A DNA stretch of 6,133 bases, taken from Candidatus Electronema aureum (GTDB lineage: Bacteria > Desulfobacterota > Desulfobulbia > Desulfobulbales > Desulfobulbaceae). The position numbers were made by a program, and so were the translations under genes. The stretch spans positions 1 to 6,133 of the forward strand of contig NQJD01000068.1 of assembly GCA_004284765.1 (NCBI GenBank), in the 5' to 3' direction. Numbering within the stretch: position 1 is the first letter of the stretch; each line of letters begins with the position of its first letter. A model generated the notes under the pieces. The model searched no databases and was not told the origin of the DNA. It saw only the letters and a list, made by a program, of their open reading frames with translations. This document shows positions 1,173-6,133 of the stretch, piece by piece.

Positions 1173-1300
1173 AAATCACCATGTTTAGATTCAAATAATC
1201 TACATGTTCAAAATAGAATAATCAACATGTTTTATTTATTTTTATTCAAATAAAATTTACTTTCCATGTAAAAACACGACCATCTTGAGTCGTTTTCCGC
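1173..1300 (-). promoter_or_regulatory. AT-rich promoter/leader region of the Fic-like gene
   Basis: The composition drops sharply to AT-rich directly upstream of the minus-strand ATG. The segment contains the 23-bp tandem repeats plus further CATGT and TTCAAATA motifs (1244-1251, 1264-1269). I could not assign exact -35/-10 hexamers with confidence. Confidence 0.5.
1175..1243. repeat. Three tandem 23-bp imperfect direct repeats (core ATCnnCATGTT)
   Basis: R1 1175-1197 ATCACCATGTTTAGATTCAAATA. R2 1198-1220 ATCTACATGTTCAAAATAGAATA. R3 1221-1243 ATCAACATGTTTTATTTATTTTT. The period is exactly 23 bp. The first 11 nt are conserved and the tails are AT-rich and degenerate. R1 starts 3 nt from the start codon of the Fic-like gene. 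Confidence 0.8.
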
Positions 1301-1396
1301 GCCGATCAAGGTTGTCCCAGAAAGCCCAGAAGATCATCTATCCGAGCTTCCGCCTTCACGTCCAGTGCCCAAGGCAGGCATAACCCCGGGCAGGGG

Positions 1397-1423
1397 CCGT
1401 GCCTGGTCGCTAGACCAGCACGG
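1397..1423. repeat. Stem-loop, 11 bp with one bulged C and a GCTA loop
   Basis: CCGTG(C)CTGGTC GCTA GACCAGCACGG. Pairing was checked base by base. Confidence 0.7.
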
Positions 1424-1431
1424 GGCGCAGC

Positions 1432-1458
1432 CCTGCCAAGCGAGGCCAGCGAAGCAGG
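1432..1458. repeat. Hairpin H0 (weaker member of the conserved-loop family)
   Basis: The stem is CCTGC/GCAGG (5 bp). The 17-nt loop CAAGCGAGGCCAGCGAA resembles the H1/H2 loop core GCGAGCGNAGCGA. Confidence 0.4.
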
Positions 1459-1495
1459 ACCGAGCGACAGCAGCGGGGAGCCGCAACTGAGCAAG

Positions 1496-1529
1496 CCCCC
1501 CTATCTGCGAGCGCAGCGAGTTAGGGGGG
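1496..1529. repeat. Hairpin H1: 8-bp stem, 18-nt conserved loop
   Basis: CCCCCCTA | TCTGCGAGCGCAGCGAGT | TAGGGGGG, perfect pairing. Confidence 0.85.
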
Positions 1530-1552
1530 TGCGTCGAAGGCGCGGGGGCACG

Positions 1553-1579
1553 AAGCTGCCCCGGTCCAGGCGGCAGCTT
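1553..1579. repeat. Stem-loop, 8 bp (AAGCTGCC/GGCAGCTT) with an 11-nt loop
   Basis: AAGCTGCC ccggtccaggc GGCAGCTT. It lies between H1 and H2. Confidence 0.7.
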
Positions 1580-1601
1580 GGTGGGGGGGCCGACCGGCGA
1601 A

Positions 1602-1635
1602 GCCGCCCATTTGCGAGCGTAGCGAGTTGGGCGGC
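1602..1635. repeat. Hairpin H2: 8-bp stem, 18-nt conserved loop (paralog of H1)
   Basis: GCCGCCCA | TTTGCGAGCGTAGCGAGT | TGGGCGGC, perfect pairing. The loop is 16/18 identical to H1. Three stem pairs differ from H1 and all three changes are compensated. Confidence 0.85.
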
Positions 1636-1671
1636 GTAGTCCGGTTGGGGGCAAAGCCCGGGACGCCAAGC

Positions 1672-1841
1672 AAAGCGCGGCCACCCTGGTCAGCAAGCCG
1701 GCTTGCCGGCGTGGTCGTTGCAGGGGTCCCCGTTTTCTGGACGCGCAGCGGCCGGAAAAAAGGGGAGGCAACGAGTCCCAAAGGGACCACTTTGGAGCGC
1801 TTGCGCGTAAAAGTGCCTGCGGAGCAGGGTGGCCGCGCTTT
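1672..1841. repeat. Perfect 17-bp inverted repeat enclosing 136 bp
   Basis: The left arm is 1672-1688, AAAGCGCGGCCACCCTG. The right arm is 1825-1841, CAGGGTGGCCGCGCTTT. The interior holds further small hairpins: GCAAG-CCGG-CTTGC, GTCC..GGAC, GTCCC-AAA-GGGAC, and the alternative CCAAAG-GGACCA-CTTTGG. Confidence 0.85.
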
Positions 1842-1983
1842 ATGCGGCGTCCCCCGCAAGGGGCGATAAGGAGCGAAGCGACCCAGCCCCGCTGCAAGCC
1901 GGTGAAACCGGCTGAAAGCCCAAGCCCGGCAAGGAGGCTGCAAGCCGACCCAGGGCGCGGAGCCGCAACGCGGCGGAGTTTGT

Positions 1984-2040
1984 TTTACACGAATTTATAC
2001 CACGGGTATTCATTGACAATAGCCTCACGAATAACCACGG
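1984..2040 (+). promoter_or_regulatory. Candidate promoter/operator region of the 2056 operon
   Basis: Two direct copies of CACGAAT-N(2-5)-CCACGG are present: 1988-2005 CACGAATTTATACCACGG and 2026-2040 CACGAATAACCACGG. A perfect TTGACA sits at 2013-2018, but there is no good -10 at 17 bp. An alternative pair is TTTACA 1984-1989, a 17-bp spacer, then TATTCA 2007-2012. The hexamer assignment is uncertain. Confidence 0.4.
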
Positions 2041-2055
2041 ATTGATTACCGTTAC

Positions 2056-2877
2056 ATGGATACGAGTACACAAATTAAGAAAATGCAGGCGGCGCGAGCA
2101 CTACGCCTAGGCGATAAGTCGCCACGCCAGGTCGGCGCTGAAAAGGCGAACTTGGTGCTGCTCTGGATCTACCGCTGGGGCTGGGCCAGCCCGACCACAG
2201 TCGGCCTGGTCGGCAGCGACAACCAGAACGGACTGGCGGCACGCCTGGTAAGGCGTGGCTTCCTGAACAAAATCCGAACGGAGTCGGGCGGGGGACAGCG
2301 CGACGTGCCAGCCTACATCCTAACGCTCACAGAGCTAGGACGACACGAGGTCGAGCGCTTGATAACTGACCCGGATGACCTGCTGCCATATGACGTCGAC
2401 CCATACCGCATCAATCAAACGCTGCTGCGCCATGACCACATGGCGCAGACAGCGACCGCCAAGGCGTTAGCCAGCGGCACGATTTCTGGCTACCAAACAG
2501 AGCGGGAACTGCGGCAGAAGAGCCAGAAAAGCATGAAACAGCCGGATGTGGTGTGGCAGCAAGGCTCGGACCATCTCACCGCAGTCGAGATCGAACTATC
2601 GGCCAAATGGGAGCGCGACCTCGACCAGTTTGTTCGGTCTTGCATCTATGCGATGACAGAGGGACGAAATGGAGAGCCGCCACGCTTCCAGCACATTGCC
2701 GTGGTCAGCGATGCGCCAGCCATCGTGACCCGGTACAAGCGGGCGTTTTCTCCAGGCGCCTCCTATGGCATCTGGAAGCGGGACGAAAAAAGTCGGCACT
2801 GGAAGCAGGAGCGCACCGCAGAAGTTCCAGATTGGGTCGAGGAAAGGATGCTGTGGAAACTTGTCGAACATCGCTAA
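2056..2877 (+). CDS. wHTH + PD-(D/E)xK-like protein resembling the 'replication-relaxation' (Replic_Relax) family
   Basis: This is the 273-aa track ORF, with GC-rich third positions. The N-terminal part fits a winged-helix pattern (LVLLWIYRWGWASPTTVGLV...AARLVRRGFLNKI...YILTLTELGRHEV). The C-terminal part fits H..D..ExE..K spacing (LLRHDHMAQT...KQPDVVWQQ...AVEIELSAKWERDL). There is no clear SD before ATG 2056; an alternative in-frame ATG lies at 2083. The family call is from memory of the Pfam pattern. Confidence 0.8.
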   Translation: MDTSTQIKKMQAARALRLGDKSPRQVGAEKANLVLLWIYRWGWASPTTVGLVGSDNQNGLAARLVRRGFLNKIRTESGGGQRDVPAYILTLTELGRHEVERLITDPDDLLPYDVDPYRINQTLLRHDHMAQTATAKALASGTISGYQTERELRQKSQKSMKQPDVVWQQGSDHLTAVEIELSAKWERDLDQFVRSCIYAMTEGRNGEPPRFQHIAVVSDAPAIVTRYKRAFSPGASYGIWKRDEKSRHWKQERTAEVPDWVEERMLWKLVEHR

Positions 2878-3476
2878 TCGCCTTCGCCCTGTTAGCGGCG
2901 CTCCTATCAGGCTGTGACTCAGAGGTGAGCCGGCTCCAGTCCGAGAATGCCAGCCTGCGTCAGAGGCTGGCTGAAGCGGGTCAGCGTCAAGCTGAACTGG
3001 AGTACATGGAGCAGCAAGCCGGAATTGCCGCCGGTTGTGATTGGCTCGTGTCACTCTGTCCTACCTCAATCGTGGAAACAGGACGTCAGGCACAGGCGCA
3101 AGGCTTCGGCGGCGGCCATACCCTACCTTTCTGGATTGCATTCATCACCAAGCTACTGGCGATGGGTACGTTTCTAGGTGGCATGGGTGGGATGGCTATT
3201 TGGCTATGGATCAAGATTGGATATCCGGAAGCTGAGGAGTTAGCCAAGGCAAAAGCGTTGCTGCAGAACGCCGACAGACAAGCCAAGGCGGCACAGCAGC
3301 GGGCAGCGCAAGCAGAAGCCAAAGCTGTTCTGCTATGCGAAGCGAACTGGGATGCTCAAGTCACACTGGAGGAGCTAAACAGGCAAATTGAGGCCAGTAA
3401 GCAAACACTGGAAGCCAAAACCCGAGAGATTCAGGCAACAAAGCTAGTGCAAGCGGCCTTAAACGCTTTCGACTGA
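2853..3476 (+). CDS. Putative lipoprotein / membrane protein with coiled-coil segments (207 aa)
   Basis: I use an internal GTG start at 2853 within track ORF 2553..3476, preceded by GAGGAAAGGA at 2839-2848. This start yields METCRTSLIAFALLAALLSGC, a basic n-region, a hydrophobic core and an LSGC lipobox. The rest contains a hydrophobic stretch LPFWIAFITKLLAMGTFLGGMGGMAIWLWI and A/Q/K/E-rich helical tails. It overlaps the upstream gene by 25 nt, which suggests translational coupling. Confidence 0.7.
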   Translation: METCRTSLIAFALLAALLSGCDSEVSRLQSENASLRQRLAEAGQRQAELEYMEQQAGIAAGCDWLVSLCPTSIVETGRQAQAQGFGGGHTLPFWIAFITKLLAMGTFLGGMGGMAIWLWIKIGYPEAEELAKAKALLQNADRQAKAAQQRAAQAEAKAVLLCEANWDAQVTLEELNRQIEASKQTLEAKTREIQATKLVQAALNAFD

Positions 3477-3484
3477 AAAGCCAC

Positions 3485-3499
3485 GGGGGCTAAGCCCCC
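3485..3499 (+). terminator. GC hairpin just after the operon stop; no U-tract
   Basis: GGGGGC TAA GCCCCC lies 9 nt after the TGA at 3474-3476. It is followed by GAACCCCG rather than a T-run, so intrinsic terminator function is doubtful. Confidence 0.3.
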
Positions 3500-3531
3500 G
3501 AACCCCGACCCTTGCCGCCGGGAGGCTCGCC

Positions 3532-3558
3532 GGGGATGGGTAAAACCAACCCATCCCC
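3532..3558. repeat. Stem-loop, 10 bp (GGGGATGGGT/ACCCATCCCC) with a 7-nt loop
   Basis: GGGGATGGGT aaaacca ACCCATCCCC, perfect pairing. It lies in ORF-poor GC-rich block C. Confidence 0.7.
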
Positions 3559-3607
3559 TCTGGCCATGAGCATCATCGCTCCGGTCAACGTCAAGGGTGC
3601 GCTTCGC

Positions 3608-3656
3608 CAGGTGCTCACCCGGTCCCGGCCATGCCGGGCTGCGGCTTCCGCACCTG
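3608..3656. repeat. Nested stem-loops in block C
   Basis: The outer stem is CAGGTGC (3608-3614) / GCACCTG (3650-3656). The inner hairpin is CCCGGC-CAT-GCCGGG (3624-3638). Confidence 0.55.
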
Positions 3657-4130
3657 CCCTTGACGCCGCCCTTCGCTTACAGGCCCATCGAGTCCCCCGC
3701 CCAGGATAGAGCAAGGAAGTCAGCCCTCCGCCGTTCTGCTGCCCAGTGGCGGCTTCTCGCATGTTCTGGCCGATTCGCTGACAGTCTCGGGTGTCCCCCT
3801 TTTCACCACTCTCCGAGCGCTGCTTTCACCTCCTGGGTGACCGCCTGCGCACTGGTGGCGCCGGCGAATACGGCGTCAGCTGGAGCATGGTGCTGCTGTG
3901 CTGGGCGCTGTAAGGCCAGTTCGCTACGCTTGGCGGTGGTTATCTGCCGTTCTTCCCGAACTGGGCGGAAAGGTATGAGCAGGGGCTGGTGACGGTGAAG
4001 GAGTGGCGGGAGAACCGGTTCAGGTTTTTCTGAAAAAAATAAACGACGCCTATATCACAACTAAAGCAATTAGTTTCAGACTTTTTTTACAGGAAACCTC
4101 GCTGTTACGTTCAAGCGGCGATGGTAGGAT

Positions 4131-4155
4131 TAGCACTCAAATGAGTCGAGTGCTA
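4131..4155. repeat. Stem-loop, 8 bp (TAGCACTC/GAGTGCTA), followed by an A-run
   Basis: TAGCACTC aaatgagtc GAGTGCTA, then AAAAAAC. On the plus strand it is followed by A residues and on the minus strand preceded by T residues, so it is not a canonical terminator on either strand. Confidence 0.6.
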
Positions 4156-4278
4156 AAAAACTCCCCCAACACATAAAACACTGTATCTAGTCAACACCTT
4201 GAGATAAAGCACTAGATCTAGTAGTCTAAAAACCATATTAAAAAAGTGGTTTGGAGAAAAAATGACTTTAGATGATTG

Positions 4279-4383
4279 CGCCTCTACCCCATAGCCCACA
4301 ACGGTAGAGGCGAAAAAAAGCCCACACTGGCGATTCTCTTCACGTAGAGCCAGTATGGGCAGCGCAGGGGCACCAAGAGGTGC
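4279..4383. other. Three consecutive stem-loops (possible leader or small RNA)
   Basis: The first is 4279-4312, CGCCTCTACC (14-nt loop) GGTAGAGGCG, 10 bp, followed by AAAAAAA. The second is 4320-4360, GCCCACACTGGC (17-nt loop) GCCAGTATGGGC, 11/12 pairs. Its single C/A mismatch becomes a G-U wobble if the minus strand is transcribed. The third is 4370-4383, GCACC-AAGA-GGTGC. Confidence 0.4.
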
Positions 4384-4413
4384 TAGCGGTATTCATCAAC
4401 CTTTAACAACCAG

Positions 4414-4433
4414 TTTCGTGTTGGCGCACGAAA
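4414..4433. promoter_or_regulatory. Inverted repeat TTTCGTG-N6-CACGAAA upstream of the small ORF
   Basis: The arms are a perfect 7 bp. The half-sites match those of the 16-bp element at 4752 and 5619, but with a wider spacer. It lies about 12 nt upstream of the strong SD at 4445-4455. Confidence 0.5.
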
Positions 4434-4451
4434 TCATGCTGGTGAAAGGAG

Positions 4452-4604
4452 GTGAGACCAATTAAACAGCTTAAACTTCCACTGAACATTCCAGAAGGTT
4501 ATGAACTCCGATTCGTGAGCTACATAACTGCAAAAAATGGTCAGCGAATTTATGCAAAGCACTATGGGAAAAAGGCGTTTCCGATAGTTGTCCGAGTAAA
4601 GTAA
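4452..4604 (+). CDS. Small basic protein, 47-50 aa, unknown function
   Basis: A near-perfect SD, AAAGGAGGTGA, lies at 4445-4455. The frame opens after TGA 4443-4445. The candidate starts are GTG 4452 (zero spacing from the SD) or ATT 4461 (8-nt spacing); there is no ATG. The translation is (M)RPIKQLKLPLNIPEGYELRFVSYITAKNGQRIYAKHYGKKAFPIVVRVK, with stop TAA at 4602-4604. It is too short for the supplied track. Confidence 0.5.
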   Translation: MRPIKQLKLPLNIPEGYELRFVSYITAKNGQRIYAKHYGKKAFPIVVRVK

Positions 4605-4743
4605 TCAGCGACAGCAACTAGGCAATCGTTAGCACCCTCTTGGATTCTAAGAGTGCATTAAACACGATCAGAGTGAAGATCGTCCAGCCATAATTACGAA
4701 ATACATAATTTTGAACGAACGTAATTTGCCCAATCAGAATTAG

Positions 4744-4767
4744 TATAATTATTTCGTACGAACGAAA
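4744..4767 (+). promoter_or_regulatory. Consensus -10 (TATAAT 4744-4749) followed by the 16-bp operator-like element TTTCGTACGAACGAAA (4752-4767)
   Basis: A perfect TATAAT lies 33 nt upstream of ATG 4782. No good -35 sits at 16-18 bp (TTGCCC 4726-4731 is only 12 bp away). The operator contains the 10-bp palindrome TTCGTACGAA (4753-4762) and is 15/16 identical to 5619-5634. Extra ACGAA-type half-sites occur at 4695-4700 and 4714-4724. Confidence 0.55.
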
Positions 4768-4781
4768 TAATCGGGCACCCG

Positions 4782-5642
4782 ATGACTGACCAGGAACAAC
4801 CCAAACGCGGCCGTGGCCGGCCGAAGCAATACGCTTCCGACGCCGACCGTGCGCGCGCCTGGCGGCAGCGCCAGGCTGAACTGATTGCCCAGGCACAGCA
4901 GCCGGTGGCCCCGGTAGTCATCGAAAAGATCGTTGAAAAAGTGGTCGAAATCCCCGTCGACCGCAGAATCCAGGAAAACAGCCCCAAACCCGGCCGCAGC
5001 AAGGCCGCCGGAAGCACGCCGGACGCTACCAGGCTGGCCAGTGTGCTTAAACCCAAGTTCGGCGCCTACGGCGGTGAGGAACGCGCCAAACGGCTGCGCG
5101 TGAATGCTGCGCGCGCAGCCAGCACGGCGCGCGAGATCCTCGGGATGTTCGGCGCTGGCGAGGCCATCCCGGAAGCCGAAAAAGCCTTCCTGCAGCAGGC
5201 GGCACAGTTTTTCGAGGGGCTGAATGGGTTGTTCGAGACTAGCCAGCACAGCGCCAGGCAGGCCAAGACCCGGGCGGATGCCGAGCGCCAGGCAAAGCAC
5301 AACGCGAAACTTGCCGAGGTTGTTCGGCTGACCTTCGGTGAAACGCTCGACCAGGAACAAGTCCGGGCAACTGCCGAGGCGTTGCAAGCATTCGCCAGTA
5401 GCGAAACCGGCGCGGCGGAAGCTCGCCGCCGGCGCGTTGACCGCTCCTATTTCTTCATCAATCGGGAATATGAGTTGAAAGCGGCGCTGAAAGCCGGCGA
5501 TCCTCAACAGATTGCCCGTGAAGTTGCCGAAATTCGGTTGGATGCTGGCGAACGCGGTCGATTCTGGAATGATCGTGAGGAACGCTGTTACAGCGCTGGC
5601 TGGGCGGATTTTCTCGAATTTCGTTCGAACGAAAAACGCTGA
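4782..5642 (+). CDS. Hypothetical DNA-binding protein with an N-terminal AT-hook-like motif (286 aa)
   Basis: This is a track ORF with a strong GC3 bias. The N-terminus KRGRGRPKQYASDADRARAWRQRQ has an R-G-R-P core flanked by basic residues. The rest is A/E/Q/R-rich and helical. The longer minus-strand ORF 4749..5795 is its antisense shadow. There is no obvious SD. Confidence 0.85.
   Translation: MTDQEQPKRGRGRPKQYASDADRARAWRQRQAELIAQAQQPVAPVVIEKIVEKVVEIPVDRRIQENSPKPGRSKAAGSTPDATRLASVLKPKFGAYGGEERAKRLRVNAARAASTAREILGMFGAGEAIPEAEKAFLQQAAQFFEGLNGLFETSQHSARQAKTRADAERQAKHNAKLAEVVRLTFGETLDQEQVRATAEALQAFASSETGAAEARRRRVDRSYFFINREYELKAALKAGDPQQIAREVAEIRLDAGERGRFWNDREERCYSAGWADFLEFRSNEKR
5619..5634. 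promoter_or_regulatory. Perfect 16-bp palindrome TTTCGTTCGAACGAAA inside the last codons of the 286-aa gene
   Basis: Self-complementarity was checked base by base. It is 15/16 identical to the promoter element at 4752-4767. A T6 run at 5644-5649 lies 9 nt downstream. Confidence 0.6.
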
Positions 5643-5692
5643 TTTTTTGCCGTCGACCGCAAAATTGCTGCCAAGGAGAGCTGACTCAGCGA

Positions 5693-5727
5693 GTGGCAGA
5701 GATCGTAATGGCCTGAACTTCCCCGCA
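5693..5727 (+). repeat. 35-bp direct repeat, copy 1
   Basis: GTGGCAGAGATCGTAATGGCCTGAACTTCCCCGCA. It is 32/35 identical to 6034-6068, and the last 21 nt are identical. Confidence 0.85.
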
Positions 5728-5875
5728 ATTGTTTGAAAGTGGCGCTGCTTGGTTGCGATATGCGGTGCCGCTTCAAGCGGGAAGCTGTTGGCCATTCCCT
5801 CCCTATAGACTGCTTTTTAAAGCGGTTAAATAGTTGAAGGTGGTCCACCCTCAGGCGTGATCAAGGTTGAACAAG

Positions 5876-5969
5876 GAGGGGGCACTACAAGCCCCCTCTG
5901 GGGGCCTCGATAAGAGGGAGGGGGGGCCGGCTTTGCCGGGGGAACCCCGAAGGGGTGCCCCTTGCCCGG
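5876..5969. other. GC-rich hairpin cluster (block B)
   Basis: The first hairpin is GAGGGGGC-actacaa-GCCCCCTC (5876-5898). An alternative pairing is CCCTCT (5894-5899) with AGAGGG (5913-5918). The next hairpin is CCGGC-TTT-GCCGG (5927-5939). The next is GGGG-A-ACCCC-GAA-GGGGT-G-CCCC (5939-5961). A possible closing helix is CCGGG (5936-5940) with CCCGG (5965-5969). Confidence 0.55.
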
Positions 5970-5977
5970 TTGCGCCG

Positions 5978-5995
5978 CACGAAATTTATCCAGGG
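5978..5995 (+). promoter_or_regulatory. Third copy of the CACGAA(A)TTTAT..CCA.GG motif
   Basis: CACGAAATTTATCCAGGG here, against CACGAATTTATACCACGG at 1988-2005. It sits at the 3' flank of a GC hairpin block, in the same relative position as the copy in block A. Confidence 0.35.
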
Positions 5996-6025
5996 GTCGT
6001 CTCAGAAAACGGAAAATAAAGCACG

Positions 6026-6133
6026 CTAAGCCGGTGGCAGCGGTCGCAATGGCCTGAACTTCCCCGCACCGACCTTGGCACTGCTGCGCCATAGGTAATC
6101 GCCGGTCAGGTTGATATGCTCCCACCCCAGCGG
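6026..6133 (-). CDS. Possible 3' end of a minus-strand CDS entering from the right edge
   Basis: The minus frame is open from base 6133 to TAG (6028..6026). It reads [35 protein letters not shown], with mostly G/C third positions. Only 35 codons are visible and they overlap repeat copy 2. A plus-strand ATG at 6116 is an alternative reading. I cannot discriminate between them. Confidence 0.3.
6034..6068 (+). repeat. 35-bp direct repeat, copy 2
   Basis: GTGGCAGCGGTCGCAATGGCCTGAACTTCCCCGCA, located 341 bp downstream of copy 1. Confidence 0.85.

Follow-up and report, generated by a model that had tools for sequence, protein, structure and literature searches.

The 6,133-bp contig NQJD01000068.1 of Candidatus Electronema aureum (hereafter the window, on which all positions are numbered) carries a GC-rich block at 1320-1985. 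It is followed on the same strand by a gene for a 273-amino-acid (aa) protein, a predicted winged-helix and PD-(D/E)xK nuclease, and by a gene for a 207-aa lipoprotein. A sequence-only reading of the window had described the block as GC-rich, free of open reading frames (ORFs) and dense in hairpins. A large structured non-coding RNA, an origin read as single-stranded DNA and decayed gene remnants had been offered as explanations. As shown below, the block is a real, conserved and strand-specific fold that travels with the 273-aa gene on plasmids and genomic islands. Its features and those of the flanking DNA are collected in Table 1.

The description of the block was borne out by its composition and folding. 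The GC content was 0.665-0.73 over 1301-1900, compared with 0.37-0.435 at 1101-1400 and 0.53 at 1901-2100. Long ORFs were found on the minus strand only (187 aa and 140 aa). Neither had a match in Pfam or, by tblastn, in 72,556 plasmids, and no credible coding sequence was seen. Searches of the same plasmids by blastn with 1280-2060 and by megablast gave no match to the block. When the whole window was scanned against Rfam 15 at an expectation value (E) <=1, the sole match was a chance c-di-GMP-II hit within the coding sequence of a 286-aa gene, and no family matched the block. Folding energies of both strands were calculated with RNA and with DNA parameters, and z-scores were taken relative to dinucleotide shuffles. 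With RNA parameters the plus strand folded at −360.9 kcal/mol (z −5.99) and the minus strand at −348.6 (z −5.88). With DNA parameters the values were −194.7 (z −5.72) and −177.4 (z −4.86), the plus strand being more stable by 17 kcal/mol. No shuffle matched the fold of the real block in any of the four runs. The minimum free energy (MFE) fold contained 14 hairpins, in agreement with the earlier count of at least nine stem-loops. Their loops were GCTA, GAA (three times), AAA (twice), CTTG (twice), GCA and others. The C- and G-runs that had been pointed out lie where they were said to lie (CCCCC 1851-1855, GGGG 1860-1863, CCCC 1887-1890), and exact GCGAAGC heptamers occur in the window at 1449-1455, 1596-1602 and 1874-1880.

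The 273-aa protein had about 120 homologous clusters, mostly on small metagenomic contigs. The same GC-rich block was present upstream of the gene in the three closest contigs, at protein identities of 81%, 74% and 59%. With a protein profile, 99 further loci were gathered (designated here by L numbers), and 100 sources were searched in all. By iterated nhmmer searches, 61 of the 84 loci with at least 600 nt of upstream sequence proved to have the element ahead of the gene; homology of 1559-1984 to L048, L045, L005 and L003 was seen by nhmmer and alignment. A covariance model of the core (R1, 177 positions), built from members with short interiors, detected the core in 65 of the 100 sources, including loci that nhmmer had missed. 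In 63 of these 65 the core was upstream of the gene on the same strand, 70-900 nt away. The core of the window scored 65.7 bits on the plus strand and 27.3 bits on the minus strand. The element was conserved even where the neighbouring protein was as little as about 31% identical. There was a single copy per locus, and no dispersed copies were found in the window. The GC island of the relatives was sharply bounded, with about 150 nt on either side of the core, even where the flanks were 20-40% GC.

Among the carriers were Thiothrix unzii plasmid pTunz3, a Sulfuriferula nivalis plasmid and a genomic island of Burkholderia pseudomallei that also has an integrase and a TraG_N gene. The plasmid L040 (2,970 bp, circular, with a 127-nt terminal overlap) encodes a Rep_1 rolling-circle initiator and the homologue of the 273-aa protein and, apart from these, holds only the element; this is how a mobilisable rolling-circle plasmid is laid out. 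In L040 a frame open through the element (1788-2951) would give a 387-aa version of the relaxase-like gene. Gene callers also put spurious ORFs on the element elsewhere, such as a 256-aa 'gene' in one B. pseudomallei assembly (L106, 9289-10059) that near-identical neighbours do not have. A scan of IMG/VR with the exact 14-mer GGGTAGCCGCGCTT gave 115 loci, none with the element by nhmmer, and these were taken as chance matches.

Comparison with the relatives indicated that the block is conserved as base-paired structure and is not filler. Compensatory change could be read by eye, the window pairing GGCCACCC/GGGTGGCC being replaced by GGCTGCCC/GGGCAGCC in L005 and by GGCTACCC/GGGTAGCC in L003. 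Over 32 distinct sequences in the model alignment, 96.1% of core cells were standard pairs, compared with 37-48% when the 3′ partners were slid by 1-3 columns, and 22 of the 31 core pairs had compensatory (both-side) changes. The covariation score was 0.482 against 0.155 in shuffles, and the real score was reached in 0 of 500 shuffles. Independent MAFFT/RNAalifold runs gave 21/29 and 21/31 compensatory pairs. G·U pairs numbered 54 and A·C pairs 17 over 61 distinct sequences, with G·U making up only about 3% of counted pair cells. An A·C on the plus strand is a G·U on the other strand; therefore it is the plus strand, the sense strand of the gene, that is under selection to fold.

The core begins with a triloop hairpin of the GNA type (1649-1659), followed by a 6-bp helix and a helix of about 20 bp. 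The arms of these helices lie within the 39-nt arms of an inverted repeat (1660-1698 and 1815-1853). The helix of about 20 bp was nearly invariant in sequence on both arms (AAGCGAAGCGCGGCUACCC / GGGUAGCCGCGCUUUGCGC). The helices enclose a variable multi-hairpin interior, which in the window comprises hairpins at 1697-1710, 1727-1766, 1775-1787 and 1797-1806 and which ranged from 60 to 170 nt across relatives. Members of the window's subfamily have conserved hairpins in this interior, together with a multiway junction.

Upstream of the core, the GTCCA pentaloop of the small hairpin recurs in the 5′ domains of relatives, and C-GTCCA-G was the commonest pentaloop among them (31/83). The two copies of the unit of junction motif and long hairpin have stems that differ by compensating changes (CCCCCC/GGGGGG in one and CCGCCC/GGGCGG in the other) around a conserved loop. 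The second copy is the homologue of the single copy in most relatives, and GGGGGAGCCG was found 70-90 nt upstream of the core in nearly all of them. A partial tandem duplication was also seen in L048 and L010. Because of this duplication the block is about 650 nt long here, compared with about 450-530 nt in most relatives. Downstream of the core, the hairpins of the 3′ domain were kept with changes in L048, L005 and L004. A kissing interaction of the GTCCAG loops with GCTGGA/CTGGAC segments (1565-1570 with 1736-1741) was considered and set aside, as it was not conserved in L005 or L003.

At the 3′ end of the element, about 16 relatives had GCGCAG, a hairpin with a locus-specific stem and then CGNAGT, at the boundary between GC-rich and AT-rich DNA. 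This feature was recognised by reading individual sequences, and its stem lengths vary between loci. A terminator scan gave a hit at 1962-1974, within one weak terminator-like hairpin (1962-1984), the T-run of which was not conserved in relatives. Around relaxase nick sites one usually finds a conserved hairpin and, after it, a short conserved motif in single-stranded form. By this analogy, the terminal hairpin at 1955-1979 is a candidate nick-proximal hairpin, and a transcription terminator appears less likely. The two direct repeats between the element and the start codon are candidate winged-helix binding or operator sites.

Table 1. Features of the structured element and of the surrounding DNA in the window.
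Feature	Position	Strand	Basis or remark
Fic-family protein, N-terminal 390 aa	1-1172	−	runs off left contig end
AT-rich spacer, holds three 23-bp direct repeats	1173-1300		
Three 23-bp direct repeats (AATCNNCATGTT...)	1174-1242		3 matches vs 0.22 expected, period 23
GC-rich structured block (whole element): 5′ domain, lineage-specific partial tandem duplication, conserved core, 3′ domain	1320-1985	+	GC profile, fold z, nhmmer
Small hairpin CAC-GTCCA-GTG, GTCCA pentaloop	1357-1367	+	read from sequence
First copy of unit: GGGGRGCCG junction motif and long hairpin (1495-1530) with GCGNAGC mini-hairpin in loop	1475-1530	+	direct repeats D2/D8, motif search, hairpin list
Second copy of unit: GGGGGGCCG at 1584-1592, hairpin 1602-1635	1584-1635	+	
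Conserved core, 213 nt	1645-1857	+	covariance model R1, inverted repeat I1, pair conservation
3′ domain hairpins: CCCCC-GCAA-GGGG 1851-1864; 1870-1883 (C-GAA-G); 1897-1913 (GAA triloop); GGCT-GCA-AGCC 1936-1946	1851-1946	+	
Terminal hairpin GCGCGG-AGCCGC-AAC-GCGGCG-GAGT	1955-1979	+	sits on GC-rich/AT-rich boundary
AT-richer DNA, about 70 bp, two direct repeats	about 1986-2055		
Two direct repeats CACGAAT..ACCACGG, between element and start codon	1988-2005 and 2026-2040	+	2 matches, 0 expected
273-aa winged-helix and PD-(D/E)xK gene	2056-2877	+	
207-aa lipoprotein/membrane/coiled-coil gene	2853-3476	+	start overlaps end of 273-aa gene; lipobox LLSGC in translation
Mixed non-coding and decayed DNA	3480-4030		
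AT-rich stretch	4030-4780		
Orphan 286-aa gene	4782-5642	+	17-nt palindromic repeats on either side
Tn3-family inverted repeat and transposase end	about 5985-6133		common to thousands of plasmids

The element is not a leader of the gene. The spacing to the gene varied between 70 and 900 nt, and promoter-like sequences lay between element and gene in L003 and L048. L062 (1400-1805) was the sole clear departure from the common layout: the element was found downstream of the relaxase-like gene on the opposite strand, with an 84-aa ORF filling the usual upstream place. This arrangement excludes an obligatory 5′ leader.

The 273-aa protein of the window had no match in Pfam. The NCBIfam model NF041423 ('MobC family replication-relaxation protein') matched it at E 4e-8 and matched all 39 sampled family members (best E 2.9e-13). 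Residues D164, E178, E180 and K184 were invariant in the 39 sequences (P163 in at least 90%), in the context 'PDV...VEIELSAKW'. In an hhalign comparison with the TraX homologue of pAM373 (E 0.004), 'PDVvW...AVEIELSAKW' was paired with 'ADFIF...SFEIELTMK', the shared motif being EIEL(S/T)xK. With an AlphaFold model (predicted local distance difference test score 93.4), Foldseek returned the winged-helix regulators MarR, PadR and HpaR at a probability of 0.96-1.0 over the N-terminal 100-150 residues, and weak matches to the nuclease folds of Can2, Card1, EcoO109I, NucS and SfsA. For a putative PD-(D/E)xK core the motif evidence is good and the fold-level evidence weak. PADLOC and PHROGs gave no match for the nuclease, and a sequence search of solved structures returned nothing.

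The domain of MOBC-class relaxases is PF13814 (PMC5357655), which adopts a PD-(D/E)xK fold and usually occurs fused to a helix-turn-helix domain (PMC3424549). The studied prototype, TraX of pAD1, combines a winged helix at its N terminus with an active site like that of restriction endonucleases; its binding sites are five direct repeats lying 70-120 bp from the nick, and it shows no covalent DNA intermediate (PMC12857230). The winged helix and restriction-endonuclease-like core predicted for the 273-aa protein are, on the model, the architecture of a MOBC relaxase. We regard the protein as a putative relaxase that would represent a distant, unrecognised proteobacterial branch of the MOBC class. 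A syntenic partner gene of 207-219 aa was present in L003, L004, L005, L105-107 and L109-111 and absent from the circular plasmid L040. The 207-aa lipoprotein/coiled-coil partner of the window had nothing in PADLOC, a marginal PHROGs match (E 0.051) and no NTPase family match.

Relaxase genes normally adjoin their origin of transfer (oriT). Reading of the pAM373 sequence revealed, ahead of the traX homologue, five direct repeats of about 11 bp and then an imperfect palindrome about 150 bp long. Francia and Clewell (2002) reportedly placed the TraX nick inside that large repeat. In the window, short direct repeats are found near the inverted repeat, two at 1988-2040 and three of 23 bp at 1174-1242, but no array conserved across the relatives was established. 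A large inverted repeat with internal hairpins and nearby direct repeats upstream of a relaxase-like gene follows the same logic as pAM373 on a larger scale. Selection of the structure on one strand only points to a single-stranded state, which in conjugation would be the transferred strand. In our judgement the chances are evenly balanced that 1320-1985 is the oriT region of a small mobilisation module, used as folded single-stranded DNA, and that the 273-aa protein is its nuclease. Of the explanations offered in the sequence-only reading, an origin read as single-stranded DNA is the one we favour, given the MOBC-like partner gene, the single-strand fold and the GNA triloops. A single-strand promoter of the Frpo or single-strand initiation (ssi) type was unsupported. 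A scan found no promoter-like hexamers in 1320-1985, the conserved stem showed no −35/−10 hexamers, and the strand that folds is the sense strand, not the template, of the downstream genes.

The loops of the predicted hairpins bear on whether the fold is one of DNA or of RNA. Among 506 predicted hairpins in 36 elements, 33% had triloops, compared with 14% in shuffles. The leading triloops were C-GAA-G (34), C-GCA-G (31), C-AAA-G (12) and C-GTA-G (9), and nearly all triloops were of the C-GNA-G or C-ANA-G type. The leading tetraloops were CCCA, GACA, CCTA, CCAA and GATA, and GNRA and UUCG were rare. In large natural RNAs, GNRA and UNCG tetraloops predominate. Hirao, Yoshizawa and co-workers are said to have found that GCGAAGC and other loops of the C-GNA-G kind have exceptional stability as DNA and are present in the origins of single-strand phages. 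The loop repertoire fits stable DNA hairpins better than RNA.

The same fold has been weighed as a large structured non-coding RNA, the first of the earlier suggestions. On this account the element would belong to a new family of ornate RNAs of about 450-650 nt, transcribed from the upstream AT-rich region in the sense of the gene and acting with the nuclease as scaffold, guide, regulator or antitoxin-like partner. We hold this to be the main rival and a live one, if on the unlikely side. The strand-specific covariation includes G·U intermediates (in one pair GC 13, GU 13 and AU 4); the multi-domain fold has conserved loops (GUCCA pentaloops and CCUA tetraloops) and purine-rich junctions; in AT-rich hosts the element stands out as a GC-rich island, and its orientation matches that of the gene in almost all cases; and a sigma-70-like promoter at 1190-1219 faces the element. 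There is a precedent in SGI1, the mobilisation of which needs an sgm-sRNA encoded between an atypical relaxase gene and oriT (PMC9299015). The findings that speak against an RNA are the absence of any Rfam match even at E<=1, the dominance of C-GNA-G triloops and non-GNRA tetraloops, the small share of G·U pairs, a 3′ end without a conserved U-tract terminator, and the finding of no conserved promoter at a fixed distance in relatives. It seems unlikely to us that the block encodes an undescribed ornate RNA class (450-650 nt) on plasmids and islands of Beta- and Gammaproteobacteria that forms a ribonucleoprotein with the winged-helix/PD-(D/E)xK nuclease. Such an RNA could scaffold or guide DNA cleavage in mobilisation, or control the nuclease. 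An RNA of a type III toxin-antitoxin system was rejected, as most members had no tandem repeat array, and a ColE1-like primer RNA was rejected because the element is independent of the replicon type.

A further explanation keeps the single-stranded DNA and makes the 273-aa gene a mere neighbour. The folded plus strand would be a single-strand origin (sso) or ssi that recruits RNA polymerase or primase for complementary-strand synthesis, and would not be the substrate of the nuclease. In favour of this reading, the fold is strand-specific and consists of very stable DNA-type hairpins, and the element is present in rolling-circle plasmids. The element of L040 fills most of one of only two non-coding regions and is co-oriented with Rep_1, and a REP_ORF2-G2P gene is found in L005. 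The sequence TAGCGA occurs in loops (for example 1618-1623) and resembles the CS-6 motif TAGCGT of ssoA, and the GGGGRGCCG motif is also present in a Rep-associated element at 5921. The linkage to rolling-circle Rep nevertheless fails in the RepB-type plasmid L001 and the chromosomal islands L105-107, the Rep of L005 is on the opposite strand, and only L040 fits both linkage to and co-orientation with a rolling-circle Rep. Known single-strand origins are 150-300 nt long and are not co-inherited with one protein family. Because the presence of the element goes with the relaxase-like gene rather than with the type of replicon, the case for a function in priming only is weaker, and we consider such a function quite improbable. 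As for decayed coding sequence, or a GC-rich filler of repetitive palindromic elements, the block does contain long spurious minus-strand ORFs, which are sometimes annotated in relatives (256 aa in L106), and decayed gene parts are present in another block of the window. That reading is effectively refuted for 1320-1985 by conservation to about 31% protein identity, by compensatory changes in 22 of the 31 core pairs, by the lack of protein similarity and by the single copy per locus; what is conserved is base pairs with compensatory changes, not codons.

If the block is an oriT, the following course of events may be envisaged. The protein would bind the region through its winged helix, perhaps at the direct repeats of 1988-2040, and would nick one strand within or beside the conserved structure. 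A helper conjugation system would export the nicked strand. The exported plus strand would refold into many very stable GNA-loop hairpins, and its refolded long helix would recreate the duplex that each arm shows in the double-stranded plasmid. The nuclease, which would read double-stranded DNA, could then recognise the refolded site again for the closing reaction. A site readable both in the plasmid and in the refolded strand would account for the sequence conservation of the two arms of the long helix, over and above the conservation of their pairing. A further role of the many hairpins may be to shield the strand end or to help prime complementary-strand synthesis.

Several observations weigh against the assignment as an oriT. 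The window protein scored 32.8 bits with NF041423, below the curated cut-off of 200. None of the 39 aligned members matched PF13814 (Replic_Relax) at E<=0.01, and the window protein missed it altogether; the homologue of L040, outside this alignment, reached it at E 0.0046. The module has no accompanying coupling-protein gene, unlike CloDF13 with MobB or pAD1 with TraW, and MOB-suite typed both PLSDB plasmids carrying it as non-mobilizable. A subclade of distant homologues (L041/42, L051/52, L058/59) had no GC-rich island upstream of the gene and no match to the model. The argument from the loops is founded on MFE predictions and on general knowledge of DNA and RNA loops. With its conserved loops (GTCCA, CCTA) and junctions (GGGGGAGCCG, GCTGGAG, GTGAAGGCAA), the structure resembles a large structured RNA, and the block is a GC island even in AT-rich hosts, as structural RNAs are. 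Finally, a multi-domain structure of 450-650 nt is, to our knowledge, far more elaborate than any characterised oriT.

The closest likeness is with TraX and oriT2 of the enterococcal plasmids pAD1 and pAM373, which have in common with the module the N-terminal winged helix, the PD-(D/E)xK domain with the aligned EIEL(S/T)xK motif, and a cis site upstream of the relaxase gene with a large inverted repeat and, nearby, short direct repeats that in the window are candidate binding sites (PMC12857230; pAM373 sequence). The protein relationship is remote, below family cut-offs, and the hosts here are Proteobacteria. Whereas pAM373 has one simple, AT-rich, near-perfect palindrome, the present structure is 3-4 times larger, GC-rich and multi-branched, with covariation on one strand only. 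Where pAD1 has the coupling protein TraW, the module has a small lipoprotein partner. The R1 model gave no match to pAM373 (10.4 bits, E 0.96). MobC/MobB of CloDF13 is likewise a small mobilisable module of a Gram-negative plasmid with a MOBC-type relaxase (PMC12857230), but encodes its own coupling-type protein, MobB. This likeness is drawn from the description of CloDF13, as the mob region of the public record is poorly annotated and split into short ORFs; the score of R1 against CloDF13 was not significant (13.4 bits, E 0.24).

The single-strand origins ssoA, ssoU and ssoT and the ssi of the G4/phiX174 type are also orientation-dependent, non-coding, folded single-stranded DNA with stable hairpins, and mini-hairpins of the GCGAAGC type are known from single-strand origins. 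They are shorter and tied to their replicon, whereas the present element is also found on non-rolling-circle plasmids and chromosomal islands. The large RNAs OLE, GOLLD, ROOL and raiA and the sgm-sRNA of SGI1 are comparable in size class, in the multi-domain covarying fold and in residence on mobile elements. They differ in that the block has no Rfam match and that its loops are not dominated by GNRA/UNCG.

On balance, the block is best filed as a putative, unusually large, structurally conserved oriT-type site beside a relaxase gene of the little-studied MOBC type, with an appreciable chance that it is a novel large structured RNA instead. MOBC relaxases cleave DNA by means of a restriction-enzyme fold, and a covalent DNA intermediate has not been observed, so that strand recognition, hand-over to the secretion system and re-closure remain a puzzle in this class (PMC12857230). 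The module described here would be a tractable case, being a compact two-gene module with a strongly conserved duplex inside a strand-specific fold. Since its carriers are typed as non-mobilizable and the region is unannotated or lies under spurious ORFs, as in the B. pseudomallei island, their mobility may be underestimated. Were the RNA reading true, the block would represent a new class of large structured RNA tied to a nuclease.

Similar architecture had also been claimed for 3480-3800 and 5730-6030. The former was GC-rich and moderately structured (z −3.41); the latter was not significantly structured (z −1.57), and neither matched the core covariance model. These two blocks are different things and are unrelated to the main element. 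In the first, 3503-3677 was conserved only in the closest relative contig, L004 (87%). An inverted repeat at 3577-3677 (GTCAAGGGTGCG ... CGCACCTGCCCTTGAC), conserved at 87% in L004, recurred at 77% identity in the non-coding part of RepA plasmids of Pseudomonas aeruginosa that are 2,953 bp long. The adjoining 3748-4041 was 66-67% identical to 'metal-dependent hydrolase' genes of Thiothrix plasmids, in a frame that ends at 4030-4032. An in-frame stop at 3911-3913 indicates a decayed gene fragment, and it is to this part alone that the suggestion of gene decay applies. In the other block, a GC-rich hairpin-forming segment of about 80 bp (5891-5971) was 80-93% identical to non-coding DNA of small plasmids of Thauera, Paracoccus, Klebsiella (3-kb plasmids), Delftia and Nitrotoga. 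The Thauera copy lies about 600 bp from a replication initiator gene. The segment has the GGGGGGCCG motif in common with the main element and is probably a motif associated with replication origins; in pBBR1, the DNA ahead of rep presumably resembles it.

At the left of the window, the Fic-family protein showed 49.7% identity to a gene of a Deefgea piscis plasmid. The protein had no Pfam match because the Fic domain itself falls outside the window. The three 23-bp repeats begin 2 bases from the Fic start codon, between the Fic gene and the structured element. They may be a binding site or promoter region, and their membership in the element is uncertain. The 286-aa gene had no family match and no plasmid homologue. 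It is bracketed by three copies of a 17-nt near-palindrome (ATTTCGTWCGAACGAAA) at 4708-4767 and 5618-5634, which may be operators, or iterons of a replication or regulatory protein yet to be recognised. The c-di-GMP-II riboswitch match inside this gene (5368-5421) scored 21.2 bits against a threshold of 53.5 (E 0.71) and was taken as chance.

The right end of the contig (5985-6133) was 97-100% identical to thousands of plasmids, and all megablast matches of the window fell here. A 38-bp terminal repeat of the Tn3 family was located at about 5993-6030. Just inside this repeat, a 43-nt stretch (6026-6068) was found to be duplicated at 5685-5727 with 86% identity, which suggests that the duplicate is a relic of a second, related transposon end.

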